IMG/VR virus record: IMGVR_UViG_3300049448_000779
Source: an uncultured virus (IMG/VR IMGVR_UViG_3300049448_000779)
Taxonomy: Duplodnaviria > Heunggongvirae > Uroviricota > Caudoviricetes
Length of the DNA stretch: 64,000 nucleotides
Strand: one strand, 5' to 3'
The notes beneath the pieces were generated by a model that worked only from the letters and a program-made list of their open reading frames with translations, was not told where the DNA came from and did not search any database. The position numbers were made by a program, and so were the translations under genes. Positions 5,394-62,192 of this stretch are shown in pieces; the first letter of the stretch is position 1, and each line of letters begins with the position of its first letter.

Positions 5394-5943
5394 GCTGGCT
5401 GATATTTGGACCGGGGCCAGACGAGCTATTGCGCGGGTATGTGGGCTACCCTATCCCCCGGCCCGCATCCAGCACCCGTCAGTCCCGACAGGTTGGCCCG
5501 TCCTTGACACCCTGATAGGCATCGGTGGCTACCCAGAGCATCGCCTCACCCATATCCATGGCTCGGTCCAGCAGACCTTTGAGCTGACCCGCGATTGGGG
5601 GACCGTCGTGAGAATCGCCACGCTCAACGAACTCATGCATCTTCATCCCAAAGCCAAAGGCCAACGCCTCGTTGTTGACTGCACTGCCCTGCAGGAAACC
5701 GAGACTCAGGCACGCTACTCGCTAGTGGTGCACCGCTTTCAGGGCACGATGCCCTCAACGGTTCTCTGGCTGACCGCTGGCCCCGTGGAAGCTCTACCCA
5801 AGGCTCTCAAGTTTTGCGCCTACCTGAGACTCGAGTGCTGGGACAACCAAGTTCGAGTTGTCAAGAACATGACGTCCCCCAACCAAGGCTGCTCGGTCTC
5901 GCTCCCCTGGCTTGGTGGTAACGACGGTTCCAAGGGAGTCTAG
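5365..5943 (+). CDS. Degenerate RecA-like protein lacking Walker A
   Basis: PTGWPVLDTLIGIGGYP, KALKFCAYLRLE and VRVVKN match RecA motifs; GPESSGKT is replaced by HGSVQQT. Confidence 0.65.
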   Translation: MGSRMPSGDKLADIWTGARRAIARVCGLPYPPARIQHPSVPTGWPVLDTLIGIGGYPEHRLTHIHGSVQQTFELTRDWGTVVRIATLNELMHLHPKAKGQRLVVDCTALQETETQARYSLVVHRFQGTMPSTVLWLTAGPVEALPKALKFCAYLRLECWDNQVRVVKNMTSPNQGCSVSLPWLGGNDGSKGV

Positions 5944-35987: not shown

Positions 35988-36226
35988 AGAAGAGTGTGTC
36001 AAACAAGCGTTGTATAGAGGTCAAACACTACAACCTCCAGCCTGGCTGGGGTTGTTGCGTGTGTAAAACCTACAACGGTGAGCAGAGGCTAGTCTGCAAG
36101 GTCTGCCGGCACTATCGCTGCGATCGCGAATCAACCAAAGACCCAATTGATGCAGCCTCTCTCAAGACCCATGAGACCAGCACAGTCCATTAGTCTCTAG
36201 TCAGTCATATCAGATCATATCAAGAT

Positions 36227-36736
36227 TTGGTCGAAAGTGTTGCAGGCCAGATCTTGAGCATGTTAGAAAGGTTCACTATGCGCTATTTGCTACTCCCTCT
36301 GTTTCTACTCCCGAGTCTATTCTCGGGTTGTGCCCACACGACGGCTGGCCAATGCACTCCCGGCCCCGGTTGCGAGATCCCAGATTACGAGTTTGGTACC
36401 TTCGATTCTGAACCTCGCGGCGGGCTAGCCTTTGGCTACAGTTGTTACGAGACGCTGCCTCAAGATGACACTGCGGTCTGCCACAGCTCCTATGGGTTGA
36501 CTCCAGAGGAGATCGAGATCGGTAAGCGGAACTGCGGCGGGGTTGTCCTCAACCATAGGTGCCCGACGAACCCTCTGCTTTACTGTTCCGGGCTGCACTC
36601 ACGTGGTGATCCGGCACGGCCGATGGTCACCTACCTGTACTTCGGCAATCCATTCAACTCTCAAGTCCTGTCAAAGTCCGATTTACTGGGCGGGGACACC
36701 GAGTTTAACCCAGGGTTTGTAGGTCGGCTGCGTTAA
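36227..36736 (+). CDS. Putative Cys-rich lipoprotein
   Basis: MRYLLLPLFLLPSLFSGC lipobox-like signal. Confidence 0.55.
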   Translation: MVESVAGQILSMLERFTMRYLLLPLFLLPSLFSGCAHTTAGQCTPGPGCEIPDYEFGTFDSEPRGGLAFGYSCYETLPQDDTAVCHSSYGLTPEEIEIGKRNCGGVVLNHRCPTNPLLYCSGLHSRGDPARPMVTYLYFGNPFNSQVLSKSDLLGGDTEFNPGFVGRLR

Positions 36737-36743
36737 GACTGCC

Positions 36744-38042
36744 ATGAGCCTAGGAACCCTTTTGATTCTCCCTGGCCTCCCCGCTGTCCGTACGAAGCGC
36801 GGGGGGCTGATCATCACTAGGAAGTTCGTAGATGGTATGCGCAGCTACGCCGAGCGTTGGCCGGGTCGTGTCGCTACCTTGCTGAATGAGACCACTCAAG
36901 TCAGCAATAACCTGGACAACATCGAGGTCATGCCTGGCGAGCCTTTGCCGTTCGAGATCGACACGGTCAAGTTCGGCTCCACGGGAATGTACCGCCGGAT
37001 CGACCAGCTCGGCGATGTCTCGTGCGTGCTCGGCGGGCCTCACCACCAGCTGCACGGGCTTCCGCGCGAACTTCGCGCCCGCGGGATCATCTCCGTGCTG
37101 TGTTTCGAGTACTCGTTGAAGACGCGGCTTGACGTTATGCGCTCAGAGACGCGCAATCCGATTCGCTTGTTGCGTCGCGCTGCGTGGGAGGCGCGCGAAG
37201 AAATCCTGACGTTGTGGGACGTCACGGCGGCCCACGGGGTCCAATGCAATGGGACCCCGACATTCAATCGCTACCGGCGTCTCAGCGCTTCGGCCCATCT
37301 CTACTTCGACGCTCGGACTCCATCGAACGGCTTCGCCACCGAGAAGCATCAGCAGTTGCGTGCTGAACGTCTGCTGGGCAACGCGCAGCTGCACATTGCG
37401 TTCTCCGGGCGGCTTCTCAAAATGAAGGGCGCCCACCACCTGGTACAGATCGCACAAAGCCTTTTGCGGCGCCGTGTCAGGTTTCGAATGACGATCTGTG
37501 GTGGGGGTCCGCTTGCGAAGCCGATCGCACTCAGCATCAAGCGTGCTGGCCTCTCTTCTTACGTGAAGTTGGCCGGCACGCTCGACTTCGAGCGCGAGCT
37601 GCTTCCGATGATGCGCGAGGAAGTCGACTTGTTCATGGCCCCTCACGTGCAGGGCGACCCGAGCTGCACGTACCTCGAGACGCTCGCGTGTGGCGTGCCG
37701 ATCGTTGGCTATGCGAACGAGGCGTGGTCCGGGTTGCTCGATCGCGCAACCGTTGGCTGGGAGTCGCCACTCGGCAAGCCAGAGAAGCTAGCCAACTTGA
37801 TCGCTGGCCTCGATCGAAACGAAATCGTGGAACGCTCCGCGGAGGCTCTGAGATTTGCCAGTGAGCACAGCTTTGAGAGCACGTTCTCGCGCCGTGTCGA
37901 TCATCTAGTGGATCTCGTTCGTGAGCACAGAGCTTTCAGGGAGGTGGGTTATGAGGACCCTGGTTCTGTACGGGGGAACGGGAAAGAATTACCCCGGGGA
38001 GAGACTGGCTCAGGATCTCGGGATACCGTTATTCGACGGTGA
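36744..38042 (+). CDS. GT-B (GT4-like) glycosyltransferase
   Basis: FSGRLLKMKG and DLFMAPH...YLETLACGVPIVG motifs. Confidence 0.85.
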   Translation: MSLGTLLILPGLPAVRTKRGGLIITRKFVDGMRSYAERWPGRVATLLNETTQVSNNLDNIEVMPGEPLPFEIDTVKFGSTGMYRRIDQLGDVSCVLGGPHHQLHGLPRELRARGIISVLCFEYSLKTRLDVMRSETRNPIRLLRRAAWEAREEILTLWDVTAAHGVQCNGTPTFNRYRRLSASAHLYFDARTPSNGFATEKHQQLRAERLLGNAQLHIAFSGRLLKMKGAHHLVQIAQSLLRRRVRFRMTICGGGPLAKPIALSIKRAGLSSYVKLAGTLDFERELLPMMREEVDLFMAPHVQGDPSCTYLETLACGVPIVGYANEAWSGLLDRATVGWESPLGKPEKLANLIAGLDRNEIVERSAEALRFASEHSFESTFSRRVDHLVDLVREHRAFREVGYEDPGSVRGNGKELPRGETGSGSRDTVIRR

Positions 38043-40169
38043 CGAGGTCATTTTTCCCGATACGAGAGAGCGCTCAACCCGCTGTCCTTCGAACCCTAGC
38101 GATCGGTGTAGATAAGAGAATGTCCATCATCGTCATGCCACAAACCATTGTTACGTTGAGCGCGTTCCTCAAGACGAATGACCTCACTCTCCTTGTTAGG
38201 GAGACCGGTTCTTCTAAGTGGGAGGCCAGTTTCGAGCCTGACGTATTCGAAGACGCAGGTGAGAAAAATGACGATGACGCGGAGATCTTCACCGATGTCA
38301 GGATTGAGGGCGAGTCGACTCAAGAAGCCATCAAACTGATGTGCGAGTTCTTGAGTGGGAACGACGACCTGTGTATTGATGATGGGATGGGTTGCCAGGT
38401 CGCCCTTGATCTCTACTACACGAGAGTAGAGTGCGATCAAGAAGGGGTCGAGAACGCCGTCGAGAAGAAGCCAAATCCCAGCAGCTTCATGAAGCACACG
38501 ATGCGCCACCACGGCAGCGAGTGACAGGACCTACGGTGTAAGGGATGGCCCTATTTGACCTCGTCAAGAATCCAGAGCTGGCCGAACAACCCCGCGAGGA
38601 GGCTCCACACGTCGGCGCAGAGGACTCGCTGGCATCGGATCCAAACTCGACCTTCTCGGTCGAGGTCCAACGCCTGAGGCGGCGCGCTCTCGAGGTGGAT
38701 GCCCATGATCTAGCCCGCGTTACGATTCGCCGCAGTCCGTTGGATGACCTTGCTTACGAATTTCTTCGAAAGTGCTTGGAGGCCGGAGCTGCCGCTTCAG
38801 AAACTACCCAGCCCGACCATCCGAACCTTCACGATCATCGGTACCAACTCATCCTTCGGGTGTGTACTGTCCAGTTGATCGCCGGAGACTGGGAGACCGT
38901 CGTGAGCGGCCGAGAGTCAGCGCTAGCGGCTGCCGCTGAGCTGCTAGCGCGTGGCTACGCGAGTCCGGCGCATCGGTTTGACCGGAACGGTCCAGAGTGG
39001 AAGTTGAGCATCAGGTTTGGTTTCTGACTCGCCAGGTCCTATCCTCACCAGTTCCCGTCGTTAACTGACATCTCTTGGCCCACCAGTTCTTGGGGTTGTG
39101 GTTCAGGTGACATCTTCCCCCCCGTTACGAACTCGTACAGGTCTCGGTTGATGTCCAGGCTACTCACGACTTCTTCAGGCGTCGCACCGCGAGCCAGGAG
39201 GTCTCGGATCGGCGTTTCGAGGGCCTCGGCGTCGCTGACCCTGATCCCGCTTTCGCTGAACGCTGGGAACTGTTCGAGCAAAGACCAGATGTGCTGGGCA
39301 GGGATTTTCAGGCTATCCGCAATGTGGAACGCCTGGTGCGAGACGCACCGGAACAACTCGCCCTCTGTATATGAAAGTAGGCAGACTTTGCCGGCGTAGT
39401 GGGTCTCACCATCCTGCGTTACGGTCGCGGTGACGTAGGCAGTCAGAGTACTGTTGTTGATTCGGACATCAATGGCAAAGCCAAGTGATGCCTCGTGGTG
39501 GCTGTACACAATGGGGCACTCTTCTTCGTTAATAGTGATGATGTAGTCTGTCAATCGGAGCTTTACGAGCTTCACCGTGGCTACTACACCGAGTCGAGGC
39601 ACAAGGCTCGGATTGACAAGGGTTGACCTTCCTAGCAATGAAGGGCCGATTGTCCGATCAAGCAAAGTGTCGCGAACAGAAGCATCTGTCTGGAAATAAA
39701 CCTGGCCGCCGTCCCGGGGTTGCCTTGAGCAGGAGAGAAGAGCGCAATCAAGCCGGACCCTACTCCAACGGTAGCTGCTAGGAGCCCGCAGAGGACGAGT
39801 GTAATTTCTAGTCGGACCACGACTTCCTTAGTACACCGAAAACGATCCCAGGCGATGCGCCCGACTCGCGTGGGCCTTTGAAGTTTAGCCCACCCCAAGC
39901 GTATTGAGAGCATGCTCACCAAGTTTAGATCGGCGGTTAAAGCGCGTGATTTCCAGCTCATCGCACAGTACGTGCGCGAGTACCGGAATGTAGTGAAGCT
40001 CACGGAGCGCGAGATCTACCGGATCGCTTTGTCGGCCGAGCCTGACCTCTCTCAGGATACATGGCAGGACATCGTCACGACTGCAATGGAACGGCACCCC
40101 GCCGTGGTGACCGCCACCGCGCCACGCTGAATGGTTTGAAGTTCCGTTCATGCCAATCGTATTGGACCC

Positions 40170-40337
40170 ATGATCAAAAACCTCAACAAGGCCATCAAAG
40201 CGCAGCGCGGCGCTGGCATCGACATCTGGGAATCGCGCTACGTGATCGGTGGTCGCGAGATGCGCCGCGACGCGAAGCGCGCCAACAAACGCGCCCGCCG
40301 CCGCCTCGACAAGGCGATCATTCGCGAAGCTTTCTGA
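40170..40337 (+). CDS. Small basic protein (55 aa, not in ORF track)
   Basis: MIKNLNKAIKAQRGAGIDIWESRY...IIREAF*; directly follows a class II promoter motif. Confidence 0.65.
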   Translation: MIKNLNKAIKAQRGAGIDIWESRYVIGGREMRRDAKRANKRARRRLDKAIIREAF

Positions 40338-40646
40338 ACGAGTACGGGGGATGTGCCCGACCATGGCGCGTCGGGCGCTCCATGGTAAAAATGCGGGGGG
40401 CGGGAAAAGCCCCGACTTGAAGGAGTGGTGGATGACTGAAATTAGCCAGGTGACCAGCGAGCGCGTGACAGAGTGCCGCGCCTGCAACGGCTACTGCCGA
40501 CTCTCGGACAAGCCAGCTGACAAATGTCGGTACTGCAACGGCAAAGGCTATTCGCGCGACACTGTAGCGCGCCCGCTGACCGACAAGGAAGAAGCGTACA
40601 TTCTCGAGCTGCTCGCAGATGGCACGCTCGAGAAGGGTTGGGACGA

Positions 40647-41033
40647 GTGAACAAGACCTTCACCTACTACACGGACGACGGTGACGAGGCGGAGGTGGAG
40701 CTGCCTGTCAGGATGGAGGTTTGTCCAGACTGCGAGGGCCATGGCAGCGTCATGAACGAAGTCATGCGGCAACACGCATACACGCGCGAGGAGTTCGAAG
40801 AAACGTTCTGGGATGACGAAGATCGCGAAGCGTACCTGACCCGCGGCGGTAAGTACGACGTCCAGTGCCCGACATGCGACGGGCGCAACGTAGTCCCGGT
40901 TGTGGACGAGCCGCGCCTCGCGGCGCCGCAGAGGGTCATCTACGAGCAGATCCAGAAGCAAGGGGACGCCGCCGCGAGGGATCGCGCCGACGACGCGAGA
41001 ACCCGTCGGATGGAATCAGGGGACTACGAATGA
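40647..41033 (+). CDS. CxxCxGxG zinc-finger phage protein
   Basis: CPDCEGHG and CPTCDGRN. Confidence 0.65.
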   Translation: MNKTFTYYTDDGDEAEVELPVRMEVCPDCEGHGSVMNEVMRQHAYTREEFEETFWDDEDREAYLTRGGKYDVQCPTCDGRNVVPVVDEPRLAAPQRVIYEQIQKQGDAAARDRADDARTRRMESGDYE

Positions 41034-41163
41034 TGTAATGGGGCAGCGCCGTTTCCCGCCCCGAAAAGGCTATTGCTTTGTCCGCTCGATCTCGGTTAGG
41101 CACGCCGCGCAGCCCTGCAGCAGTAGGGTTTGAGCTGCGCCCGGCAACTAGGAACCCGCGCCA

Positions 41164-43353
41164 ATGCTAGTCCAGAAGATCTACCTCCGGCCCTGCAACC
41201 AAGCCTCTATGGATCTCGCTCTCGGTGAGCTGATTCTGTATGGCGAATCACGGAACGCGTTGACGCGCATCCACAATAAATGGATGCGAATAGGTAACGC
41301 GCCGCTTGTCCCCGAGTACCAGACGATCGCTCAGGACTACCGAAATCACCCTCCCAAGACCGGCCGCCGCCCTACGCTACGATGCTTGGTGCAGTGCACG
41401 GGGCGACGGATCAAGGTGCACGACGATGATCCCAGCCGTGAAGAGAAGCTGCAAAAGGCAGCGGGGAAGGCGTGCAGAATGCAGCTTACCCAATCAGGGG
41501 GCGTAGAAACCAAGCTGGACAAGCTCCGGGAGAGCTGGGGGCTCGTAGAAGTCCTGGAGCATGATCGCCAGCGCTACCGAGTTCGGTGCTCGCAGCCCAA
41601 GTCGGCGCGGTCCCTGATTCCATCGCTCGAAAAGTGGATCAAAGCCAGTGCTCCGCTCGATGCCAAGCTGGACAAGTTCCGTAAGCGCTGGGGGCTCGTA
41701 GAAGTCCTGGAGCAGGATCATCAGAGCTACCGAGTTCGGTGCTCGCAGCCCAGATCGGAGCGAGCCCGGACTAAATCGCTCAAAAAGTGGGTCAAAGTCG
41801 GCGAGTCGCTCGACGCCAAGCTGGACAAGCTCCGTGAACACTGGGGGCTCGTAGAAGTCCTGGAGCAGGATCAGCAGCTCTACCGAGTTCGGTGCTCGCA
41901 GCCCAAGTCGGCGCGACCTCAATCGCTTGAAAAGTGGATCAAAGCCAGCGAGTCGCTCGACGCCAAGCTGGACAAGCTGCGCGAGAAGTGGGTCACGATC
42001 GAGATCCAGGACCGAGATCAAGGGCGTAGTGACCACGCGGAACTGCGTGCCGCCGATATGCGTGCCGTCTACGGTCGCCACGTCGAGGCCGGCGGCTATT
42101 ACGGGACCTTCCATCTTGCAAACGAGGCTGTGGCCTCCGCCGCCAAGGCCACCGAGGCTCGTGACTCTTTTGGGCGCTTGATCGTGCGTGAGCTGCGGGA
42201 GTCCGAGACCTCCGACGACGGGCGCGCAGCGATCGACCTCTCGCGCTTCCGCTGGGACGAGCAAGACCCGTGGATGGTCGAAATCCATGGCACCCGCTGG
42301 AGCTGCCATCGAGATCAGCTGATGGGCCGCCCACGCACTCCGGCCCAGGAGGCGGTGGGCCGCGAACGAGACAAGCTTGACCCGCGTCGGCCGCCCACGG
42401 ACGCCCGGGTCGTACGCGCGCACCTTCAGCGCGATCGGATGAGCCCTCCGAGCCGGCTCAACATCCGATGGAATTGGTACCTCGTCCTTACCCTTGATTG
42501 TGATTCCCCGGAGCGCGAGGTCTCCGAGGAACGCACAGAAGCTGGCCTCGACCTCTGCTGGCGTCAAACCGATGATGGCCTCTCGTACCGCGTAGCGTAC
42601 CTCGCAGACTCACGCGGGCGGGAACGCGAGATCACCGTGCCACGCACAGCGGTATCAGCGCTGCTGCACTACGAGCACATCAAATCCCTGGCTGATCTGG
42701 AGGCAGACCGTCTGCGCAAGATCCTGAAGCTCAGTGACCGCACCGGTCACCGTACGCTCGTGCAGCGTGCTCTAGAGCGTGATGGCCAACCCAGCCCCGA
42801 TTACCGGGATCGCGACTCCAGCACGTGGAATGCCTCCGAGATCGCGCATCATATGATCCACCTCGACGAGTACGCGCACCACGGCCGCAGCAATGCTCTC
42901 GCCCAGAGAGACGGGCACTACCTCCACGAGATACACACAATCCTGCGCGAGCAGAAGGTGATCTACTGCGAGGACATGGAGGGCGACAAAGCGCTGGTCA
43001 CCAAAGAAGGGGGCGGCAAGGCTCGCGATCAGCGGCAACAAACGGCGCCGTTCACCTTCCTGCGCTTGCTACAGCGCGAGGCGCCCAAGTTCGGCGCTGT
43101 AATCGAGCTGCGTGAGCCCGCTTACACATCGCGCATTTGCGACGTTTGCGGGCATGACATGGGCGCCTCGAGCCAGCTATGGCGGCGGTGTCAGAAGTGC
43201 GGGACACGGCACGATGTGGATGCGCTGGCGGCTCGCAATATCCGGTGTGGTGTGAGCGGCCCGGTGACACCTGAACTCCAGGGTGTGGGTCCTCACAATG
43301 ACAATGTTCACGAGGACAGGAAGCCGCTCCGAAAGCGACGAACGAAGCATTAG
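41164..43353 (+). CDS. tnpB: TnpB/Cas12-superfamily RuvC protein (Cas12m/V-U1-like motif I) with internal tandem repeats
   Basis: RuvC-I AGLDLCWR, RuvC-II IYCEDM, PAYTSRICDVC...CQKC zinc finger, RuvC-III HDVDALAARNI. Confidence 0.8.
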   Translation: MLVQKIYLRPCNQASMDLALGELILYGESRNALTRIHNKWMRIGNAPLVPEYQTIAQDYRNHPPKTGRRPTLRCLVQCTGRRIKVHDDDPSREEKLQKAAGKACRMQLTQSGGVETKLDKLRESWGLVEVLEHDRQRYRVRCSQPKSARSLIPSLEKWIKASAPLDAKLDKFRKRWGLVEVLEQDHQSYRVRCSQPRSERARTKSLKKWVKVGESLDAKLDKLREHWGLVEVLEQDQQLYRVRCSQPKSARPQSLEKWIKASESLDAKLDKLREKWVTIEIQDRDQGRSDHAELRAADMRAVYGRHVEAGGYYGTFHLANEAVASAAKATEARDSFGRLIVRELRESETSDDGRAAIDLSRFRWDEQDPWMVEIHGTRWSCHRDQLMGRPRTPAQEAVGRERDKLDPRRPPTDARVVRAHLQRDRMSPPSRLNIRWNWYLVLTLDCDSPEREVSEERTEAGLDLCWRQTDDGLSYRVAYLADSRGREREITVPRTAVSALLHYEHIKSLADLEADRLRKILKLSDRTGHRTLVQRALERDGQPSPDYRDRDSSTWNASEIAHHMIHLDEYAHHGRSNALAQRDGHYLHEIHTILREQKVIYCEDMEGDKALVTKEGGGKARDQRQQTAPFTFLRLLQREAPKFGAVIELREPAYTSRICDVCGHDMGASSQLWRRCQKCGTRHDVDALAARNIRCGVSGPVTPELQGVGPHNDNVHEDRKPLRKRRTKH
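41511..41990 (+). repeat. In-frame tandem repeat (153, 153, 147 bp plus a partial fourth unit)
   Basis: Unit starts CAAGCTGGACAAG at 41511, 41664, 41817 and 41964; encodes KLDKLR..WGLVEVLEQD....RVRCSQP. Confidence 0.95.
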
Positions 43354-44044
43354 CAGGCCTTCAGTGTAGATGTGCCCGAGGGCACATCTATGCTGGCCAA
43401 GCCAGATTTCTATCGTGTCATAAGACGTAGCTGCGTGTCACTTTACCCCCTGTACGGAGGTCATAAGGACCAGCGCTGCAACTACATTCGGGTTCCGCCC
43501 GGCAGCGTTGGCTTGGCCACTTACGAGGTGACCGAGGGACAAGACGGGAGCGTCTACTACTGGGTCAAGTTTAAGATGGAGGGGCGGTTCATCCACGTGA
43601 GATGCGCCCCGACCATGATCCGCCTCGACCCGATCGGTGCAGACAGCGCGAGTTAGTCAGTCCAGGTCCTGCGGAGACATGACCAACAAGGGCAGCGTCT
43701 GCCTGGTGTCCAGAATCTCGATGCGAGACAAGCCAGAGTTCGAGTTCGTGAGCAGCCGCGCGACGCAAATCGATGCGGTTTCGCTCGAGCCTGTCACGTA
43801 GGTATTGACGGGAAACTTGGAGTCGTTTGGCACGTACACATTGATTTGGTAACGCTTCATTCGTCTCCCCACTCCACGTATTGCGCGTACAGCTCGTGCC
43901 AGTCGGCCACCAGCTCGTTTTCGATCAGCTCACCTTTCTTGTCGAGCGCGACCAAAGTAGCCCGGATTGTGGCGACCTCTAGTGAGAGCGTGGAAGCGAG
44001 CTGCGCCTCGACAGCCTCGAGCCTCTCGCTGAGACGTTGCTCTG

Positions 44045-44251
44045 TCATTCGCCACCCTTGTTGCCGCCTGAGCCCGAATACCCATCAGCATACCAGCCGG
44101 AGCCCTTCAGGATGAAGTTGCCGCTGACGATCACCCGCTTGGCCGTTTCTTTTCCGCAGAGGGCACACGTAGTGGCGGGATCATCTGTGATCCGCTGGTC
44201 CAACTCGAACGCCTTCTCGCACGCGGTGCACTCGTATCCGTAGGTCGGCAT
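44045..44251 (-). CDS. FmdB-family zinc-ribbon protein
   Basis: MPTYGYECTAC...CALCG...FILKGSGWYADGY. Confidence 0.9.
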   Translation of the reverse strand: MPTYGYECTACEKAFELDQRITDDPATTCALCGKETAKRVIVSGNFILKGSGWYADGYSGSGGNKGGE

Positions 44252-45484
44252 GGTTTTGTTTACACCACGGTGTAGTCGCCGGGAATGCAGGAGCACCCTG
44301 CCATCTTGGTTCCCTACTCGATCGAAATTGACACGCTCATGGTGCCGCTCATTCGCGAATGCTGGCGCCGCGAGTGGCACACTCGATATTGCTGTCAAGG
44401 CAACCCCTTCTCGGAGTGGGCCTATATCGCGTTTCGCGGTCCGCACGCGTCCGCGTTCCAACAAGCCGTGTCGCTGGTGTACTCGAGATGGACTCATCTA
44501 CTTGAGGCGAACGGCGAGGTCATTAGGTTCCCGCAGTCGGGGATCAGGAAAGCCACCCGAGCCCTCAAGAAGCTTTGAATTTGGAGGGTGTCGTGTTCGA
44601 ACTGTTCGCGCTGCTTATACTAGGGATGCTTGGCTTTGTGGCTTCAGTGTTTGTGTTCGGAGCCATTCTGGCCTTCCCAACAATGTGGCTGTGGAACTGG
44701 CTTGTACCAGAACTCTTCCATCTGTCGACGATTTCGTTCTGGCAAGCGTGGGGTCTCTTGCTCTTGAGCGGCATATTGATCAAGTCTGGATCGTCGTCGT
44801 CGTCTTCTTCCTCCTCCTCCTCGAAGTCGTGAGTGCCGTTCAGTTCCTTGCCCTTCCGCATAACCGACTTGTAAGCCTTGCTCAAGGGTGACTTGGCTCG
44901 GCTGGAGTCCTCGTCGCACCATGGGAGGTCTTAGGTCATGACCGACGAAGAGCGCGCGGAGCTGATGGGATTTCGGCGGCAAGCGCTGCTTGAGTACATG
45001 CGTGACATCTCCGACAGATGTTGGGCCGCTGGCTGGCAGGACGGGCTAGAAGCTGACCTATACCTCATTGCTTTCGAGGGCGCGTGCCCTGAGTACGGGA
45101 TGGGCGAGGTCACGGTCTTTGAACAAGAGAGGCTACGGTATTGCGCGACGATGGCAGACTGCTGGTTCAGCTGGTGCAACGATACCAAAGAGCCGATGCC
45201 TATCTCACTGGAGGAGGCCAAAACTCGCTATCAACACATCCGTCCCGCGGGGGTCGAAGCTGGTCGGACGGTCGAAGAGGTCGTATCCCTCTATGAGGAC
45301 TCTGGGCCTCAGGACTGGGTGCTGACCGCTAACCCGGAGCCTGAAGCGAATGAGCCTAGCAGCATTTCGTGGCTTCTCGATTGGGTGTATCGGGCTCACG
45401 AGAATTACGCATATCAGCAGGACCAGCTTGTTCATCTAGTGCGCCGGCACGATCTGCGGTTCGACCTTAGCTACGGCCGCTGCG

Positions 45485-46174
45485 ATGTTCGGATCGTGGA
45501 GCCAAGCTGGCTTCCCAAGGAATTCCCTCGCGCGGACGGGTGCACGCCGGAGAATCCGTGCGGCAAGGTTCGACGCTGTGTGTCGTGCGTTGAGTTGGGG
45601 GGTACCGTTGCCGATAGATCTGACGGGACTCGATGAGGCGCTGGCCTCCAAAGGCTACGACCTGCAATCGTTGTGCTTGGCACACCCATTCGCGGTGTTC
45701 GGGTCGCGCGGTGCAGGCTGTCATCGGGCCAATTCGGATTGGGATGTGGTCGCCCTCACAGCGCCGCAGCTCGCGCTTCGCGGCGGTGGCCTCGACTATC
45801 TGCAGGAGGACCCGCCAAACGATCCGCGTTGGTACTCGCGAGATCTCGCTTTTCACCTGACTGGCTACGCCGTGTGGCTCAGCGGCGGACCTAACTGGGA
45901 CCCAGCCCTCCTGGATTGGGATCGCGCCGTCGCCCGTAAGACCAAGAAGATCCGTGAGACCGCATCTATTATTGGCCGGGGATTGCTGTCGCCCGGGAGG
46001 GAAGCCAAATGGGTAACTCATGTGCGCGAGGAGCTGGGGCGCATGATCCAGCTGAGAGACCGCATACCGATCAGTCCAACGGCCTTACTCCCTTCAGTCA
46101 CTGTGGAGGACTTCCGGCAGCTTCAGGTCGACGCTGACTTTCTGAGGCTCATCGCAACGCCACATAGCTCCTGA
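45485..46174 (+). CDS. Pol-beta-superfamily nucleotidyltransferase-domain protein (start uncertain)
   Basis: VFGSRGAG...SDWDVV. Confidence 0.7.
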   Translation: MFGSWSQAGFPRNSLARTGARRRIRAARFDAVCRALSWGVPLPIDLTGLDEALASKGYDLQSLCLAHPFAVFGSRGAGCHRANSDWDVVALTAPQLALRGGGLDYLQEDPPNDPRWYSRDLAFHLTGYAVWLSGGPNWDPALLDWDRAVARKTKKIRETASIIGRGLLSPGREAKWVTHVREELGRMIQLRDRIPISPTALLPSVTVEDFRQLQVDADFLRLIATPHSS

Positions 46175-46310
46175 TGCTGTGGCCAGGTCTTGGCAGATCT
46201 CCCAATCCCCGCCTCGTGCCATGCACTGCTCCATGAACTTGAGATCAGGGCACTTCGGTTCTTCGCAGGCGTAGAGAAGAATTGTCATCCATAAAAGCCT
46301 CACGGACGCA

Positions 46311-46327
46311 TCTACACCCGGTGTAGA
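46311..46327. promoter_or_regulatory. Palindromic back-to-back pair of class I GGTGTAG motifs serving divergent genes
   Basis: TCTACACC-C-GGTGTAGA; GTG starts 8 nt away on both sides (46303 minus, 46335 plus). Confidence 0.75.
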
Positions 46328-46846
46328 TATCGCGGTGGACTTCAAGGATGTGGCAGAACGTCGGGCTTGGCTGCTGGCGCGCGTTGAAGAGGTAGAGCGG
46401 CGCCGCAACGCCAGCTCTAAGCTTCGACAGATCCTGCAGAACAGCAATCGCGCGAAGGTTCGAGCCTACGTGCAGTCGAGTCCCGGCGCGACCGTGCAGC
46501 AGATTGCATCTGCACTCGATCTGACGCCGGCACAGGTATGGGGTACCGACCTGCAGCATGATCCTGGTTTCTACCAGACCGGCGGGGTGCCGCCGCGCCG
46601 TGGTCACCCGGTGCGCTGGTGGCCTATCTCTCATCCGGGACCGGGTGTCGAAGTCCAGCCTGAGAGCCCCTAGGGTTTATCCTGGTGTAGCTGGACCTTC
46701 ATGCGAAACTTTGAAGCATTCGATGTGCTGGTGTTTTTGTTCCTCATGCTGTGGGTTGCCACGTGCTCGTTCAATCGATGCCAAGTGCGCGATTGCATGA
46801 TCAAGTGCCAGCGCCAGATCTCCGAGTGCGAGAAGGTCTGCAATCC

Positions 46847-47575
46847 TTAGAGCCCCATGAAACCGTGGACGAGGACGCCCCGGCCATTCTTGCCGTCGTT
46901 CTCGGTCCAGTACATCAACCCGACCAGGGCGCCGTCGTCATCAAAGATCGGGCCTCCGCTATCCCCGTGGCAGACGCACCCAGCCAAGAACAACACGCGA
47001 TTGAGTTGGTGGAGAGCGATCGCCGGTCGCTGTAGAGGCAGGGTCTCCGGCCCTTGAATGCACCCGTACCCTTCTAGAGTCAACGCCATTGAGGCTTTAG
47101 TGGCAATCTCGGCTGGCTTGATCTCTAGTGGCTCGGCCACCTGGAGCAGCGCGATGTCTTGCTGAGGGTCTGGACTACGGAGCGTGACCTCAAAGCTCCG
47201 TCCATCGATTGTCGACACCGAGTCCCCAACTAGAGTTCCACCATTCTGCTCGATGCAGTGCTTGGCCGTCAGCACCGATCGAGGCCCGACGACAACCCCA
47301 GAACAGCCCAAGCTGTGTTCTTCGGTCTCTACCGGCGTTGTGATCGTAAACCGGTGCGTGATCCGCACAACCTGTGGATTGACGCTGTACAGGAAGGGTC
47401 GACAGTATTGGGACTCGTCGAAAACGAAGTCGTTCAGGTTTTCCTCGGCTACCCCTGGCAACCTCTCTACTGGCGTCCGGAACTGGAGCGTGCCAGGCCT
47501 CTTCAGCGGGGCAGGCACAAGGCCAAAAGCGGCGCAGGCGAGACCTGTAGCAAGCAGCCTGACGACACTGGGCAC
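46847..47575 (-). CDS. Secreted trypsin-like (S1) serine protease
   Basis: VLTAKHC, DIALL and GDSGGP triad motifs; signal-like N-terminus. Confidence 0.9.
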   Translation of the reverse strand: MPSVVRLLATGLACAAFGLVPAPLKRPGTLQFRTPVERLPGVAEENLNDFVFDESQYCRPFLYSVNPQVVRITHRFTITTPVETEEHSLGCSGVVVGPRSVLTAKHCIEQNGGTLVGDSVSTIDGRSFEVTLRSPDPQQDIALLQVAEPLEIKPAEIATKASMALTLEGYGCIQGPETLPLQRPAIALHQLNRVLFLAGCVCHGDSGGPIFDDDGALVGLMYWTENDGKNGRGVLVHGFMGL

Positions 47576-48185
47576 TCATTAGCGAATACACCAACAGTTT
47601 AGTCATAGCCGCCGCTGAACCAGGCGCTCACTAACGATGCTTGCTCATCGCATTTCACCCAGCCAGACCACTGATCTAACTTAAGGCAGTCGAAGGCTGC
47701 TTGCACCTTCTCCTTGCGCTCTGACCAGCCGGTCCGGCTGAGATTCTTTTTAGTGCTGCAGATGAATGGATCCGGGTCTTCCCACAGCCCGAGCCTCTGG
47801 CCGGCCACGAACGTGACACGAGCGGTGTCAATCTCCAGTTGATCGGCGGCCTCCGGAGAAATCAGTTCGAACCGTTCCGCGATCATGTTGACGAGGGGTA
47901 CCCTGTACGATCGTCTGAGTTTTGAGAATTCCCGTGGGCTATGGCCTAGCGTCACGAGATGAGCTGCTTCGTGAAGACAGTACTCGATTAGGTTCAATGG
48001 ACGATACGAGTATGCCCCTATCATGCCGAGGCCTTCTAACTTCTTGAGCGAGACTCCGAATTGTCGAGACCGGCGCTTTGCGATCCTGAACTCGTGCTGT
48101 AGGGCCTGCTTGACCATGCCTGGTGTATACTTGAGTCCCCAGCGCGCTTCAATCGGGGTAATCCTTCTTTCGTCTTGAGTAGAGT

Positions 48186-55411: not shown

Positions 55412-56053
55412 ATGCTCTGGAGAATCGATGCAAGCGGACCATTTGCGCTCTGGACGCCGCCATGTTTTCGTGCGGAACGCTACAGTCAACTCGTTGGCTC
55501 CCATGATGCTATGGCGGGCCTTCTGCGCGGGGTGTTAGGTCACCGCGGAATGAACTGGACAATCCATGCAGTCCACATCCTCAGTGAGCCAAGATACTTG
55601 GGTCTCACCCAAAACGAACTGAAGTTTGACGGCGTCGGACCATTCAGTCGACATGAACGACAACATACGCAACGGCGCAATACCTATCTGCTCGATGTCC
55701 GGTACATCATCGAGGCAAGCATCATCCTCTCGAGCCGCGCCGATCCAAGCGATACCATCGAGAAGTTCAATTCGATGTTTGGCGAGCGCCTGCAGAAAGG
55801 GAAGCAGCGACGACAGACCTACTTTGGGATTCGCGAGTGCATGGCATTAGTTGACCCGTGGGGCGGGCCAGTGCCACCCGCTATCAACGTAACGCAAGAG
55901 CTGGGCATCTGCTACTACGGCACGGATTTCGACGATCCGGAGACCCCGCAGTACTTTGCGCCTCTCTCCGTTATGAGCGGGGTCGTCCACTATCCGAGCT
56001 GGGATCATGTTCGCAGCCTTGGGATTGCCCGCCGTACGCGAAGGAGCGCGTAG
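55412..56053 (+). CDS. cas5: Type I-C Cas5 (Cas5c/Cas5d), divergent
   Basis: GPFALWTPP..RAERYS, NE, QR...LLDVRYIIEA and YFGIREC motifs. Confidence 0.9.
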   Translation: MLWRIDASGPFALWTPPCFRAERYSQLVGSHDAMAGLLRGVLGHRGMNWTIHAVHILSEPRYLGLTQNELKFDGVGPFSRHERQHTQRRNTYLLDVRYIIEASIILSSRADPSDTIEKFNSMFGERLQKGKQRRQTYFGIRECMALVDPWGGPVPPAINVTQELGICYYGTDFDDPETPQYFAPLSVMSGVVHYPSWDHVRSLGIARRTRRSA

Positions 56054-56055
56054 CC

Positions 56056-57774
56056 ATGGACCTACTTGCTTCGCTCACGCGCTATGGCGAACGAGTCGGA
56101 TTGAAGCCGCTCCTCCGTGACAAGAAGTTCGTCGAGGTCTGGTGTCTTGACCTTGACACAGGGGCGTTAGCACACGTCAAAAGTACGACGCTGAAACTAC
56201 CCCAACCTGTGGCGCGCGGCTCTAATGCCGCCACTACCCCGAACCGCACCTTCGACTACGCGAAGTACGTCACGAATCGAGAGTCAGCGTTCTGGGGTCT
56301 TCTGCTGGCCATACTGAATGAGTCCAGAACGCTGACCGCCAAAGTCAACGCTCTTCTGGCCAACACGAACTGGCACGTGAAACTCGTCACCGACGAAATC
56401 ATCTTCACTGACGGGATTGGCCATGCTCATACCCTGAGTGCGACAGCAGACGTGGTCCTAATGTGTAAGGGCCAAGCGTTAGCCGAGCACCAAGTTGTAC
56501 AAAAATGGTTATCCGTACAGACCGATGATGGCATCGGGACGGCTGCGTGCCTCATTACCGGCGAGCAGCGTCCCATCTCGCGCCTGCATCACGGGATCCG
56601 AGCCGGCACGGACAAACTCGTCTCTCACAATGAGTCATCATCTTGCTATTTTGGCCTGAAGCCGAGCCAAAACTTTCAGGTCTCGGTGAGAGCAGCGGAG
56701 CTGTACGCTTCCGGTCTTTCCTACTTGATGGACACTCGCCGCGAACCGGCGAATTCGATGATGATCGTTAAGGACGTGTCCTTGGTGGTCTGGCCAGATC
56801 GCGAAGGGATCACTCATCCCATCATTTCCGCCGCGATCACAGTGCTGCGCACGTTCCCGGCCGGCGCTTCTAAACCCAAAGAGCAACAGGCGGCCTTGGC
56901 CAAACTAGAAATTGCCTGGCGCGAAATCGATGCTACTGCTGACACTGACAGCACAGACCTGTGCATGGCGATTCTTGGGTTTCGGATGAATCGCTACATA
57001 CCAATTGCGTATGGGCACACGACTGCCGCACAGTTGAAAACAGCTCTGCAGTTGTTTCGCGCGGAGTTTGAAGGGTCCACGTTCCGCCAAGTTGCTGGCG
57101 TCTGGATCAGCGAAGCCGGCAAGGTCCTAGATGATGTGCTCTATACGGTTCTTTGGGCCGTTCTGACTGGCAAGCCCTACCCACTCAAAGTGACACACCT
57201 TAATCGGCACAATGTCCGCGACTACACAAAATTCCGTTGGTTCAATGCCTACAATCACCGAAAAGGTGCACCCCTGATGTCGTCATACAAGAAAATCTCT
57301 AAGGAGTTCGAGCAGGCACCGACACGTGACCAGTATTACAACCCTGAGTTGTTGGCGCAGCTGAACAAGTTCTATTTGTTCGGGCAACTGGTCGACGTCT
57401 ACTGTCGGCTCAAACAGCTCGCGCAACATAAGAACTCGGTCAAGCCGGCAGTTCAACTGAAGATCGCCCTGGGCTCCCCGCAGCGTATCTACTCGCGGAT
57501 GCTCGAAGACGGAGTGTTTCAGGTCGAGAAAATCCGCCAGAAGGGTCGCAATCCCGAATGGGAACGCGAATTCAACCGCATCGTGGCAGATTACTACAGA
57601 GGTGGCATTGGCACCCTTCCAGCCAGGCTGTCAACCGAGGAGCGCGAACTCGTTACCCTCGGCTATTGGAGCCAGAAGCTGTACGCCCAGCATCTCTTGA
57701 CTCACTGGAGCATACTCCGCCTCAGAAAAGAAGACCGCAGCAGTGATGGGGCTGCCCCCGCTCCAGCTGAATGA
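56056..57774 (+). CDS. cas8c: Type I-C large subunit Cas8c (Csd1), divergent; probable internal Cas11c start at 57277
   Basis: CLITGEQRPISRLH...LVSHN...NFQVSVRAAELY..GLSYL; C-terminal YLFGQL...LGYW; lies between cas5 and cas7. Confidence 0.85.
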   Translation: MDLLASLTRYGERVGLKPLLRDKKFVEVWCLDLDTGALAHVKSTTLKLPQPVARGSNAATTPNRTFDYAKYVTNRESAFWGLLLAILNESRTLTAKVNALLANTNWHVKLVTDEIIFTDGIGHAHTLSATADVVLMCKGQALAEHQVVQKWLSVQTDDGIGTAACLITGEQRPISRLHHGIRAGTDKLVSHNESSSCYFGLKPSQNFQVSVRAAELYASGLSYLMDTRREPANSMMIVKDVSLVVWPDREGITHPIISAAITVLRTFPAGASKPKEQQAALAKLEIAWREIDATADTDSTDLCMAILGFRMNRYIPIAYGHTTAAQLKTALQLFRAEFEGSTFRQVAGVWISEAGKVLDDVLYTVLWAVLTGKPYPLKVTHLNRHNVRDYTKFRWFNAYNHRKGAPLMSSYKKISKEFEQAPTRDQYYNPELLAQLNKFYLFGQLVDVYCRLKQLAQHKNSVKPAVQLKIALGSPQRIYSRMLEDGVFQVEKIRQKGRNPEWEREFNRIVADYYRGGIGTLPARLSTEERELVTLGYWSQKLYAQHLLTHWSILRLRKEDRSSDGAAPAPAE

Positions 57775-57805
57775 TCACGAGACCCATACAGAAACAAAAG
57801 GCACT

Positions 57806-58000
57806 ATGACAAACAAAACAGACTCTGACGACGACGTTAGGTGGTTCGGTCTTGTGTCCACGAAGTCAGTGGACACCTCGATCTCCGGACCTGTGCAACT
57901 GGGCGTTGACCATGAAACCTTGCCAAGCCGTATCCGTATTACGCCTATCAAGAGCATTCAGGTTCTCGGGCGCATAGTCCGGCTTGAGCCTAACGAGTAA
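57806..58000 (+). CDS. 64-aa protein homologous to the Cas7c core motif (mini-Cas7)
   Basis: DVRWFGLVSTKSVDTSISGPVQLG vs cas7 DVRWFGAVLTKPVNWPITGPIQMG; AAAAGG upstream of the ATG. Confidence 0.65.
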   Translation: MTNKTDSDDDVRWFGLVSTKSVDTSISGPVQLGVDHETLPSRIRITPIKSIQVLGRIVRLEPNE

Positions 58001-58041
58001 ACGCGAGACCAACCCACTCTACCCTAAGGACTGAAAGCACC

Positions 58042-59004
58042 ATGACAACAGCAACAGTTACGACTCTGCCAGTTAAATCCGAGATCTATGACAGGCGTAC
58101 GGACATGGTCCTAATCACCAGCGCGATCTGGAGCGTGCTTCAAGGCAACCCTGACGAAGATAACGCGCGCCGCCAAGACCCAGACACTTTGCAGGGTATT
58201 ATGACCCCCCAGTGCCTCAAGTACAAATTGCGCCAGTGGTTGGAGCAGCATGGCTACGCACTGTTCATTAAGCCTGGCGGTGCGGCTTTGGAGCAGTTGA
58301 TCTATAATGTGCTCACGGATGTTGGAATCGATCCCAGTAAAATCTCTGCCGAGGCCGACGACGAAGACGCAGATGAAGACAACGAGACTGAAGGCAAGCC
58401 CAAAAACAAGGGCAAGAAGAGCAAGAACCGCGTACTGCGACAAGATGAGATCCGCGACACTGTGCGTCGTCTTTGCGCTGATTACGCGGATGTTCGTTGG
58501 TTCGGCGCTGTCCTGACGAAGCCAGTGAATTGGCCCATCACCGGCCCCATCCAGATGGGATTTTCGATGAGCGTTGATCCGGTGTACAGCCAAGAGCTGG
58601 GCATCACTCGCTCCGCCGTGACCAGAATCGACGACCTGAAATTGAAGAATCGAGACATGGGTCGTATGTCCATGATCCCTTTCGAGGTTTGTACTACGCC
58701 GATCTCGATTGATCCGTTTCGGGCTCGCGCCACTGGGTTCACGTATGCCGACCACGAAATGCTTATCAGTGGACTCCGGGAAATGTACGACATGACCCGG
58801 TCTACGCTCCGCTCGGGTGTGTGCGCCGAGAAGCTGGTAATCTTCCATCACGATAGTCCCTACGGCAACGCTCGGGCGCTCAAGCTGTTCCGCCGCGTCC
58901 AGATTAAGTCGAGTGTGCCCAACTCGCGTTCCTTCAAAGACTGGACGGTTGACGTCGATACCACTGGGCTCAATGGCGTATCCGTCGAGGTTCTCGATCT
59001 CTAG
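58042..59004 (+). CDS. cas7: Type I-C backbone Cas7c (Csd2)
   Basis: QGNPDEDNARRQDPDT...CLKYKLR, DVRWFGAV, GPIQ, ITR, MGR, TGFT and HDSPYGNA. Confidence 0.92.
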   Translation: MTTATVTTLPVKSEIYDRRTDMVLITSAIWSVLQGNPDEDNARRQDPDTLQGIMTPQCLKYKLRQWLEQHGYALFIKPGGAALEQLIYNVLTDVGIDPSKISAEADDEDADEDNETEGKPKNKGKKSKNRVLRQDEIRDTVRRLCADYADVRWFGAVLTKPVNWPITGPIQMGFSMSVDPVYSQELGITRSAVTRIDDLKLKNRDMGRMSMIPFEVCTTPISIDPFRARATGFTYADHEMLISGLREMYDMTRSTLRSGVCAEKLVIFHHDSPYGNARALKLFRRVQIKSSVPNSRSFKDWTVDVDTTGLNGVSVEVLDL

Positions 59005-59013
59005 TTAGCGGAG

Positions 59014-59051
59014 GAGCGGGGCTGCGGGCTCAAGTGCTCTCAGCCCCGCTC
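59014..59051 (+). promoter_or_regulatory. 11-bp hairpin between cas7 and the helicase gene
   Basis: GAGCGGGGCTG...CAGCCCCGCTC perfect inverted repeat ending 10 nt before the helicase ATG. Confidence 0.65.
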
Positions 59052-59061
59052 ATCACTCTAT

Positions 59062-61470: not shown

Positions 61471-62192
61471 GTACCTACGATAAGGATGCTTGGCGAAAGT
61501 TCAACGTTCACTTTCTCTCGAGTTGCCGGGGACTCTGGTCCGATGGAAAACTCAAGTTCAGCTACTACGAACTGGTCGGACTGTCAGGGTCCAAGATGTA
61601 TGATCTGCTCAAGGAGATGCTGTATACACCGAAACAGTTCATCGGGGTGGATCAAAGCCCTGAGGTGGTGCTGTACCATCGTATGAATCGGGCTCCCTGG
61701 ACAACGTGTCTGGTCAAGGACGGCTACCTTAAGGCGGAGCAGGTGGCGTCTCTTTCGGCGAGTCAGCGCGAGCCATTCGGGATTGCTCCGTATCCGATCG
61801 CGATCTACGGCTTCGACGACCACGCGAGTATTGGCCTGCAATCTTGGTGGGACACGGAAGCAAGCCAGCTTCGGCAGATCGTCGCCAAGACACTAGAACA
61901 GACTGGCGTGTGTTGCTTGATCTTGAACAACACTCTCGACCGAAACCCGGACCGGCACAAGGCGGTAGCGGAACACACGCGCCGACTCTGCTTAGCGTTC
62001 GAAGGTTGGGGCCTAAAAGAAGAGGCCCTACTCGGACCTAACCGCAGATTCTTGAACTGCATCGTCGAGAGACCGTCAGGGCATTTCGGTGGCTACGAAG
62101 TATACAAGAGCCTCGACCGCGCCCTGCGCATGGCGACGATTAGACTTGAGTTCACTAAGACCCGCGGCGTGCGGGTATGGAAAGGCGAGTGA
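61467..62192 (+). CDS. Putative class I SAM-methyltransferase-fold protein, coupled to the helicase
   Basis: GTGA overlap with the helicase stop; YYELVGLSG, FIGVDQSPEVV, VKDG, IAIYGFDD, CLILN and a terminal beta-hairpin, in Rossmann MTase order. Confidence 0.5.
   Translation: MSTYDKDAWRKFNVHFLSSCRGLWSDGKLKFSYYELVGLSGSKMYDLLKEMLYTPKQFIGVDQSPEVVLYHRMNRAPWTTCLVKDGYLKAEQVASLSASQREPFGIAPYPIAIYGFDDHASIGLQSWWDTEASQLRQIVAKTLEQTGVCCLILNNTLDRNPDRHKAVAEHTRRLCLAFEGWGLKEEALLGPNRRFLNCIVERPSGHFGGYEVYKSLDRALRMATIRLEFTKTRGVRVWKGE

Follow-up and report, generated by a model that had tools for sequence, protein, structure and literature searches.

The closest described relatives of the gene presented here are the Cas12m effectors (type V-M, formerly V-U1), of which several structures have been solved (MmCas12m2, 8hhl/8hhm/8hio; GoCas12m, 8pm4; 23vw; 23vu). 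In GoCas12m, an arginine-rich Roof (residues 50-124) touches both the non-target strand and, in the heteroduplex, base pairs 15-18, lengthening the read-out from the 12 bp of TnpB to 18 bp (PMC11013384), and MmCas12m2 has a coiled-coil REC2 together with an arginine-rich pocket for the non-target strand (PMC10442227). The first article also describes a D-E-D RuvC triad in part of the family. Moreover, a preprint (bioRxiv 10.64898/2026.09.14.751636) outlines MvCas12m of the myxophage MV-1, a D-E-D protein from a mobile element of soil bacteria, with an adjacent array and no cas1/2/4. The gene in question, identified in an earlier note made from the sequence alone, lies in a 64,000-nucleotide stretch (the window, about one seventh of a ~453-kb contig) of the IMG/VR record IMGVR_UViG_3300049448_000779, filed as an uncultured virus of the Caudoviricetes. 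It encodes a Cas12m-like protein of 729 amino acids (aa) in which one small α/β unit of the REC lobe stands in tandem, and the number of units differs between close relatives.

The protein is filed here as a member of the Cas12m clade; the window locus is not a complete type V-M system. With a probability of about 0.65, it is a Cas12m-clade effector that, given a CRISPR RNA (crRNA), binds DNA flanked by a protospacer-adjacent motif (PAM), and whose enlarged basic insertion adds Roof-like contacts. One family-specific α/β unit of ~51-53 aa would have been inserted where Cas12m has its arginine-rich Roof, and unequal recombination would then have multiplied it in tandem from one to four, later cutting it back to two in a sister variant. 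Like Cas12m, the protein would bind a short crRNA and then a PAM-flanked target, and the enlarged roof may contact the displaced strand and the PAM-distal heteroduplex, strengthening or lengthening binding. In this scheme we infer the RNA guidance of the window copy, binding as opposed to cutting, and the role of the units.

Identity, family placement, the array linkage of relatives, the anatomy of the repeats and their copy-number polymorphism, on the other hand, are shown by the data. Pfam recognised in the protein only a Cas12f1-like TNB domain (PF07282, E 5e-12). A search of the PDB with the single sequence gave UnCas12m4a as best match (4.3e-6), and a profile of 12 family sequences placed first the 'CRISPR-associated DNA-binding protein Cas12m' 23vw (E 3.1e-21, over profile positions 49-483 of 504) and second UnCas12m4a/23vu (1.4e-15), followed by a Fanzor-type TnpB-like protein (2.8e-8) and by ISDra2 TnpB and Cas12f (both ~1e-5). 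The PADLOC Cas12u1 model matched the window protein at E 3.8e-22 (76.8 bits), whereas typical members reach E 1e-137; as a caveat, the PADLOC Cas12f model PDLC01692 scored about equally (E 1.4e-23 over aa 256-693). Among 68 scanned sequences (the window protein, 8 core members of its clade and the 59 nearest non-core representatives), all matched the Cas12u1 model (best 1.2e-137) and 65 matched the broad NCBIfam TnpB model. An AlphaFold2 model of the protein (mean predicted local distance difference test, pLDDT, 73.7; predicted template modelling score, pTM, 0.58) had Cas12m2 and GoCas12m as its top four Foldseek hits among the matches listed (1.5e-14 to 2.6e-12), with TnpB at 1.8e-9, and structural matches to the whole model, in Foldseek and in VIA, covered residues 1-698. 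VIA gave TnpB a Z-score of 20.2 (338 residues, 14% identity) and Cas12m 18.7-19.4 (405-414 residues, 18-20% identity).

The window protein has the domain order of Cas12m, with a RuvC fold and a C-terminal TNB zinc finger behind WED and REC, and the motif I context GxDLxWR..(D)GLRVAY is common to both. In an alignment with 11 homologs, D463, E603, D684/D686 and the cysteines C659, C662, C676 and C679 were invariant, so that the acidic residues and zinc finger reported earlier are present in 12 of 12 aligned family members; D463 is at least 90% conserved across the 68 sequences. Within a core clade of 22 members, 20 keep the D-E-D triad (the other two have N-E-D and N-P-D), and the four zinc-finger cysteines are kept in all 22. 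By sequence, then, the protein is closer to Cas12m/V-U1 than to TnpB or other Cas12 subtypes, an affinity already proposed in the earlier note and for which profile, PADLOC and Foldseek searches agree in ranking Cas12m (Cas12u1) high. It is nevertheless only 18-20% identical to the solved Cas12m proteins, and the basic form of its clade is far smaller (~445 aa), with a 3-aa linker instead of a helical Roof. The window insertion also differs in being a predicted α/β unit without recognisable fold match, tandemly amplified, in a locus without an array. The lack of an array likewise sets it apart from MvCas12m, which is described as array-bearing, phage-borne and 610 aa long.

The family is small. 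A HMMER search of 1.84 billion representatives returned 4100 proteins at E <= 1e-3 and 1052 at E <= 1e-10, of which only 12 are close members (1.7e-229 to 1.7e-51) before the values fall to 1.8e-31. A neighbour-joining tree of 155 sequences (530 trimmed columns, 100 bootstraps, rooted on three annotated IS200/IS605 TnpBs; a duplicate of the window protein, P0001, and 9 proteins below 400 aa were omitted) recovered the 22-member core clade as monophyletic in 100 of 100 bootstraps, nested 21 nodes within the Cas12u1-like set, and the window protein grouped with P0002 and P0003 in 98 of 100. We read the family, from this tree and the profile searches, as a rare and divergent subclade within the Cas12m-like proteins. 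Loci with DNA context were equally scarce: two related loci (L001 and L002) were found among metagenome contigs, none in species genomes (104 pattern matches, none confirmed) or in IMG/VR (77 pattern matches), and tblastn against phage and plasmid records gave only C-terminal matches to TnpB genes, over at most 21% of the query.

An ordinary transposon-borne TnpB of IS200/IS605 or IS607 type, working with an omegaRNA, would explain the match of the C-terminal RuvC/TNB region to TnpB models (NCBIfam guided_TnpB E 8.6e-10; phrog_506 'transposase') and the tied VIA scores. TnpB (ISDra2, PDB 8h1j/8exa; VIA Z 19-20 over 323-338 residues) has the same minimal core as the window protein, and its size is similar to that of the relatives without the REC unit. 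Such an origin is nonetheless extremely improbable: the protein reaches 38.4 bits on the TnpB model NF040570, for which the cut-off is 100, and 26.8 on NF038281, for which it is 425; the core clade grouped with the three TnpB outgroups in 0 of 100 bootstraps; and its relatives carry CRISPR arrays. As the earlier note had observed, no transposase stands near the gene. Domain searches found neither a transposase nor tnpA among the neighbours, no insertion sequence (IS)-like ends or flanking repeats, inverted ones included, were found in 39000-46000, and no Rfam family, omegaRNA types included, was matched at gathering score, nor at E <= 1 in 40400-44600, Rfam holding described families only. The grouping with IS605/IS607 TnpB inside intact IS ends that would have spoken against the Cas12m assignment was not observed. 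Cas12f (type V-F, Cas14), which works with a trans-activating CRISPR RNA and as a dimer, resembles the basic forms of the clade in its small size, but its solved structures rank below those of Cas12m and the relatives' repeats fit the Cas12m layout.

The peculiarity of the protein resides in its REC lobe. Between aa 72, where the first conserved segment ends in the motif TGR(K/R)PT, and the conserved GG(Y/S)YxT helix (GLYWGTY in Cas12m-like sequences) lies an insertion in the register VRCSxP-linker-helix-VEV, present as four units. Tandem Repeats Finder reported at 41510-41985 a period of 153 nucleotides (nt) with 3.2 copies, 84% matches and a score of 671, and a hidden Markov model (HMM) built from three units found three complete copies (aa 116-166, 167-217 and 218-266), followed by a partial one at 267-287. 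The in-frame tandem of ~51-aa Trp/Arg-rich units claimed from the bare sequence is therefore real, as three full units and a partial one; all are in frame. Every unit has 2 Trp and 9-14 Lys+Arg, with net charges of +4, +7 and +1. At the nucleotide level the units diverge by 12-18% (U3 is 87-88% identical to U1 and U2), and the strand cores WGLVEVLE and YRVRCSQP are nearly constant between copies. The terminal partial unit corresponds, in the alignments, to the ancestral helix and strand common to the one-unit relatives. In these, the match to the unit HMM is permuted, with positions 25-39 preceding 1-21, so on this alignment the tandem duplication did not keep the register of the ancestral unit. 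A model of the module alone (pLDDT 74.1, pTM 0.43) predicts for each unit the order strand-(short helix)-strand-helix-strand. Foldseek with the module alone gave a best E of 0.3; VIA against 48,161 chains gave none at Z >= 5 (best 4.8, generic α/β sandwiches), which does not imply a novel fold; and for aa 113-287 the best ESM Atlas value, 0.82, was at chance level.

Insert length, measured in the 22 members between the conserved motifs GR[KRP]P and RxxxxELxA, falls into discrete classes: 3 aa in 8 members (including the array-linked L002), 53-59 aa in 8 (including the array-linked L001), and longer inserts of 117 aa in two (P0002 and P0003) and of 217 aa in the window protein alone, the remaining 3 being unmeasurable. 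Protein size follows in steps, from ~445 aa without units to 495-590 aa with one, 614-638 aa with two and 729 aa with four. The expansion to 729 aa that had been suspected thus stands, in steps and with a baseline of ~445 aa rather than the supposed ~580 aa, and the number of repeats in homologs, whose inspection had been recommended, is 0, 1, 2 or 4 across the family. Searching 5.8 billion proteins with the repeat region (best 8000 candidates) returned at near length only the window protein and P0002, and the same search of shorter proteins (best 8000 candidates) found none. Among 160 proteins compared by split local alignment, internal repeats were significant only in the window lineage and in P0135, a 658-aa Cas12u1-like protein with a REC duplication of a 77-aa arginine-rich segment (residues 31-106 and 163-238), whose two copies are helical, lie 132 aa apart and are unrelated in sequence to the window unit (no unit-HMM match). 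The REC insertion seems prone to duplication, with the four-unit tandem as the most extreme case seen.

Because the source is a short-read metagenome, and Logan contigs fragment inside the repeat region while a 614-aa form also exists, the repeats might be suspected of being an assembly artefact, for which only an almost negligible chance is left. The window stretch is listed for 17 metagenome runs of soil and rhizosphere (14 studies), and 7 of these runs contain at least half of its sampled words. In four runs other than the possible source, counting only contigs with 0 differences, the U1/U2 junction was bridged in three (41580-41717 in X2 and X3; 40812-41829 in X4), the U2/U3 junction in two (41691-41830 in X2 and X3) and the junction of U3 with the terminal unit in three (41886-41977 in X2 and X3; 41886-43249 in X5). 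No joint was listed among the contigs of the four runs; run X5 has no contig over ~41515-41885 and none joining across, which says nothing on a deletion. Since independent contigs bridge every junction perfectly, the repeats are not an assembly product, and the nucleotide divergence of the units suffices for them to assemble uniquely. Moreover, the four-unit protein exists on a separate contig (P0160) with the single substitution S553N.

Two sequences point to a contraction. In P0002 (614 aa) and in P0161 (629 aa), its twin assembled in Logan, exactly 100 aa of the window protein (two units) are missing, with a breakpoint anywhere in aa 153-162, the segment PSLEKWIKAS common to U1 and U3. Their substitutions are N61K, S91N and S553N, the last one shared with P0160. 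The variants differ by 1-3 substitutions only and all indels are in frame. The units have diverged from one another at synonymous sites (dS 0.13-0.27), and the variants are near-identical elsewhere; the comparison indicates that the amplification predates the split of the variants and that recombination later deleted two units to give the two-unit allele. Collapse during assembly is a less likely origin of the two-unit form, which was present in two assemblies that may come from one sample.

Profile alignment puts the insertion, directly N-terminal to the GG(Y/S)YxT helix, on the roof region (Roof/REC2) of Cas12m; the structure model of the module has moderate confidence. By analogy with this DNA-contacting position it is plausible that the units extend duplex contacts.

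Array linkage comes from the relatives, which have the Cas12m repeat layout (CAAxGCC, a 5-bp stem, GGGC and a terminal AC/AG). At L001 the gene (5193-6854) is followed on the same strand by an array of 15 repeats from 6974, 120 nt past the stop codon, and at L002 (gene 1150-2538) by 10 repeats from 2559, 20 nt past the stop; an adjacent array is therefore present in 2 of the 2 relatives with DNA context. Repeats are 36 nt long with a period of ~73 nt. Aligned with five published Cas12m crRNA repeats (Table S5 of PMC11013384), five L001/L002 repeats gave a mean column identity of 73% with nine invariant columns. Pairing is complete (100% of cells) in the stem formed by columns 15-19 with 31-35, where 3 of 5 pairs show compensatory changes, and amounts to 90.5% in the pseudoknot helix; the covariation score was reached by 0 of 500 shuffles, and slid controls paired in 23-47%. 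No cas1/2/4 was found in the two contigs, both short (6.5 and 9.7 kb), and the effector is the sole gene common to both loci. In this clade, effector plus Cas12m-type array would be a self-contained two-part module without adaptation genes. The effector of L002 (locus 1150-3251) and P0007, P0008, P0010-P0013 and P0019 measure 445-480 aa, a 3-aa linker standing where other members have the REC insertion, and array-linked members of the L002 type would be unusually compact Cas12m-like effectors. When the spacers of the relatives (23) and of the window array (18) were compared with the window, L001 and L002, the matches were only 10-16 nt long.

The window locus fails to show this adjacent array with a 36-37-nt repeat of Cas12m layout, as the earlier note had stated. 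A covariance model built from the Cas12m-type repeat scored the L001/L002 repeats at 19-40 bits (partly by construction), and its best score over the whole 64-kb window, scanned with filters off, was 13.3 bits (E 0.3); no solo Cas12m-type repeat was found in the window. That best match, at 41936-41961, was rejected as chance: it falls within the coding repeats of the gene and is gapped, 13 central positions being missing. As a side observation, the hairpin-bearing coding-repeat stretches 41936-41961 and 41789-41814 (GGATCAAAGCCAGCGAG...CTCGAC) weakly resemble the 5' part and stem of the Cas12m repeat (E 0.3 and 6.6), and the coding period of 153 nt comes to roughly double that of the relatives' arrays (73-76 nt), which was likewise judged chance. 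Tandem Repeats Finder and repeat scans found no array in the window other than the one running from 62582 to beyond 64000. Within the visible 64 kb the gene therefore has no cognate array and counts as an orphan; such an array could be elsewhere on the ~453-kb contig.

The one array of the window, ~19 kb downstream of the gene, is the distant array that the earlier note had supposed to act in trans. It is the only one in the window, and its 36-nt repeats begin with GTAGCAA, the first seven bases of the MsCas12m repeat and all that they share with it. Borrowing of its crRNAs by the effector is, however, highly doubtful, because the array adjoins Cas8c (Csd1), Cas7 and a Cas3-like helicase, directly following these type I-C-like genes, its repeats (at least 19 complete ones, of two variants) form simple hairpins, and none of the 19 was matched by the Cas12m repeat model at E <= 10. 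Absent from them are the second stem, the partner of the pseudoknot and the GAC/GAG terminus constant in 10 of 10 aligned Cas12m-type repeats; they end instead in ATTGAAAT, which we take to be the usual type I handle.

A domesticated regulator, that is, an array-independent repressor or roadblock with a single natural guide encoded elsewhere or no guide at all, resembling the nuclease-dead TnpB-like repressors, would fit the orphan status and the expanded basic REC lobe. It is very unlikely all the same: the RuvC triad of the window protein is intact, and that of nuclease-dead TnpB-like repressors is not; no candidate guide emerged from the Rfam and solo-repeat searches described above; and no neighbour in 36001-48000 is shared with L001 or L002, so a conserved partner was not found either. 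The label 'domesticated' given by the earlier note was not borne out. That Cas12m proteins bind and do not cut, as stated in PMC10442227 and PMC11013384, would suit this alternative too.

Several points weigh against the reading of the protein as a crRNA-guided DNA binder with a roof extended by the units. In the predicted models, the fold alone does not separate TnpB from Cas12m, because their VIA Z-scores tie, though Cas12m aligns over a longer stretch. The tree is neighbour-joining only, has no curated subtype references and holds sequences picked by similarity to the family profile, its ladder-like nesting may partly be a long-branch effect, and PADLOC labels were available for only 59 of the 130 non-core, non-outgroup tips. 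The module is modelled with moderate confidence (pLDDT 74 by itself, 42-67 within the full model). Its predicted α/β fold differs from the helical Roof of solved Cas12m, and the insertion is missing in 8 of 22 members, so that a roof-like function would follow from position only. The ratio of non-synonymous to synonymous substitutions (dN/dS), 0.38 for U1-U3 (few sites), is ~1.0 for U2 against U1 or U3, again over few sites and compatible with weak constraint. No guide RNA for the window copy was found within the 64 kb examined of ~453 kb, which makes RNA guidance of this copy an assumption. Finally, D-E-D Cas12m proteins did not cut double-stranded DNA according to PMC11013384, but PMC10442227 and the MV-1 preprint (bioRxiv 10.64898/2026.09.14.751636) suggest that D-E-D forms may cut.

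Some of these data would also fit a decaying orphan, in which the array has been lost, the gene is functionless and expansion and contraction of the repeats are neutral slippage on the way to a pseudogene. No cognate array lies in the 64 kb, U2 has the near-neutral ratio just cited, copy number differs between near-identical variants, and published Cas12m lists include members not flagged with an array (first rows of Table S1, PMC11013384). We consider decay unlikely: the 729-codon frame is intact, together with the catalytic and zinc residues, the variants are 1-3 substitutions apart with every indel in frame, the strand cores WGLVEVLE and YRVRCSQP are almost unchanged between units, and the unit is conserved as a single copy in 8 relatives, one of them array-linked.

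Beyond the binder with Roof-like contacts preferred here, a more ambitious interpretation is held only tentatively, namely that the 0/1/2/4-unit clade represents REC-lobe growth in progress, in which unit number tunes the coverage of strand and heteroduplex and the orphan is active with crRNAs from an array elsewhere. A TnpB-sized, array-linked core of ~445 aa might, on this possible course, have gained a new DNA-contact unit, forms with 4 and 2 units now segregating in one population. Were it so, and we would not lean on it, unit number could set binding strength, guide-length read-out or mismatch tolerance.

Features of the Cas12m-like gene and its 3' flank (window positions; aa numbered in the 729-aa protein)
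Feature	Position	Strand	Basis
Gene for a 729-aa Cas12m-like (type V-M-like) effector homolog	41164..43353	+	Open reading frame, profile, Foldseek, PADLOC
N-terminal WED strand and first REC helices, aa 1-72	41164..41379	+	Alignment A1; structure model
REC-lobe insertion, aa 73-287, four predicted α/β units	41380..42024	+	Alignment A4; profile alignment; module model
Unit U1, aa 116-166	41509..41661	+	Unit HMM, 113 bits; Tandem Repeats Finder
Unit U2, aa 167-217	41662..41814	+	Unit HMM, 112 bits; 82% nt identity to U1
Unit U3, aa 218-266, shorter by two codons	41815..41961	+	Unit HMM, 108 bits
Terminal partial unit, aa 267-287	41962..42024	+	Unit HMM positions 1-21; alignments A1, A4
RuvC motif I aspartate D463, in GLDLCWRQ	42550..42552	+	Invariant 12/12
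RuvC motif II glutamate E603	42970..42972	+	Invariant 12/12
TNB zinc finger C659, C662, C676, C679	43138..43200	+	Pfam PF07282, aa 631-693, E 5e-12
RuvC motif III aspartate D686, in HDVDALAARN	43219..43221	+	Invariant 12/12; codon checked on sequence
Strong hairpin, then small hairpin with T-rich tail	43354..43405	+	Folding; terminator scan

The gene starts with ATG and runs through 729 uninterrupted codons; this start was preferred over the 714-aa call of the database because homologs share the N-terminus MLVxKYYxRP. In the AlphaFold2 model, the segment preceding the insertion is predicted to hold a strand (2-10) and two helices (13-43 and 50-61). Past the stop codon, the larger hairpin has a folding energy of -30 kcal/mol (z -5.8; 0 of 200 shuffles equally stable) and a terminator-like site lies at 43393-43405, so that the pair is probably, and most simply, a terminator. 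It gave no match in Rfam or to the Cas12m repeat model, and a promoter scan found 0 sites, with 0.8 expected. Beginning one base past the stop codon, the stable hairpin extends over the start of an open reading frame (ORF) of 94 aa at 43372-43656.

As for the surroundings, 39 of the 50 larger ORFs of the window have no Pfam match at E <= 1e-3, and only 3 of 50 match PHROGs (integrase, protease and helicase), none of them structural. The phage origin asserted in the earlier note finds no backing in these counts, nor in IMG/VR or phage records, where no relative was found. No tRNA was detected in the window. The only recombinase seen is a tyrosine integrase ~40 kb from the gene, its 3' part at 1-606 being cut by the window start (Phage_integrase, E 6e-26); together with the many family-less ORFs, it suggests a large mobile element or island. 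Nearby, at 1427-1575, a 14-nt tandem repeat has 10.9 copies (consensus GTGCCCCGAGCGTA, 81% matches). A 229-aa ORF at 45485-46174, overlapping the preceding ORF 44938-45636, weakly resembles MntA-type nucleotidyltransferase antitoxins (E 0.003, below cut-off).

The cas operon at 55858-62192 is type I-C-like in an unusual order: Cas8c/Csd1 of 638 aa, Cas7 of 320 aa, a helicase of 802 aa in which ResIII was the only match and an HD domain was not recognised, and an ORF of 241 aa without match. No cas1/2/4 or recognisable cas5 was found in the window, and its Cas7 had no relative in species genomes. Its array is composite, with eight repeats of one variant (62582-63125) followed by an unbroken series of at least 11 of the second (63167-64000), whose first repeat is intermediate between the two; by its sequence it looks like two fused arrays or a replacement of repeats.

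Cas12m itself, orphan Cas12m genes (Table S1 of PMC11013384, first rows) and a mobile-element D-E-D Cas12m (the MV-1 preprint) were already known. New are the divergent compact clade, the α/β REC unit and its tandem amplification with polymorphic copy number. No report of tandem repeats in the REC lobes of Cas12 or TnpB was found by full-text literature searches, subscription journals lying outside their coverage, and the novelty surmised for the module holds to that extent.

Cas12 effectors are thought to derive from TnpB by REC insertions, a growth in which the Roof has been interpreted, in published work, as an early step. The clade is, in this line, a natural graded series of one module (0, 1, 2 and 4 copies), with two alleles in a nearly clonal population, and because such a series exists the effect of REC enlargement on DNA binding could be measured on natural proteins. 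The array-linked members of ~445-460 aa, with their 36-nt repeat, are candidate compact RNA-guided DNA binders. If the orphan is inactive, all that is left is a curious case of unstable repeats in a dying gene; as it stands, the window gene shows one way in which Cas12m-like proteins can grow.

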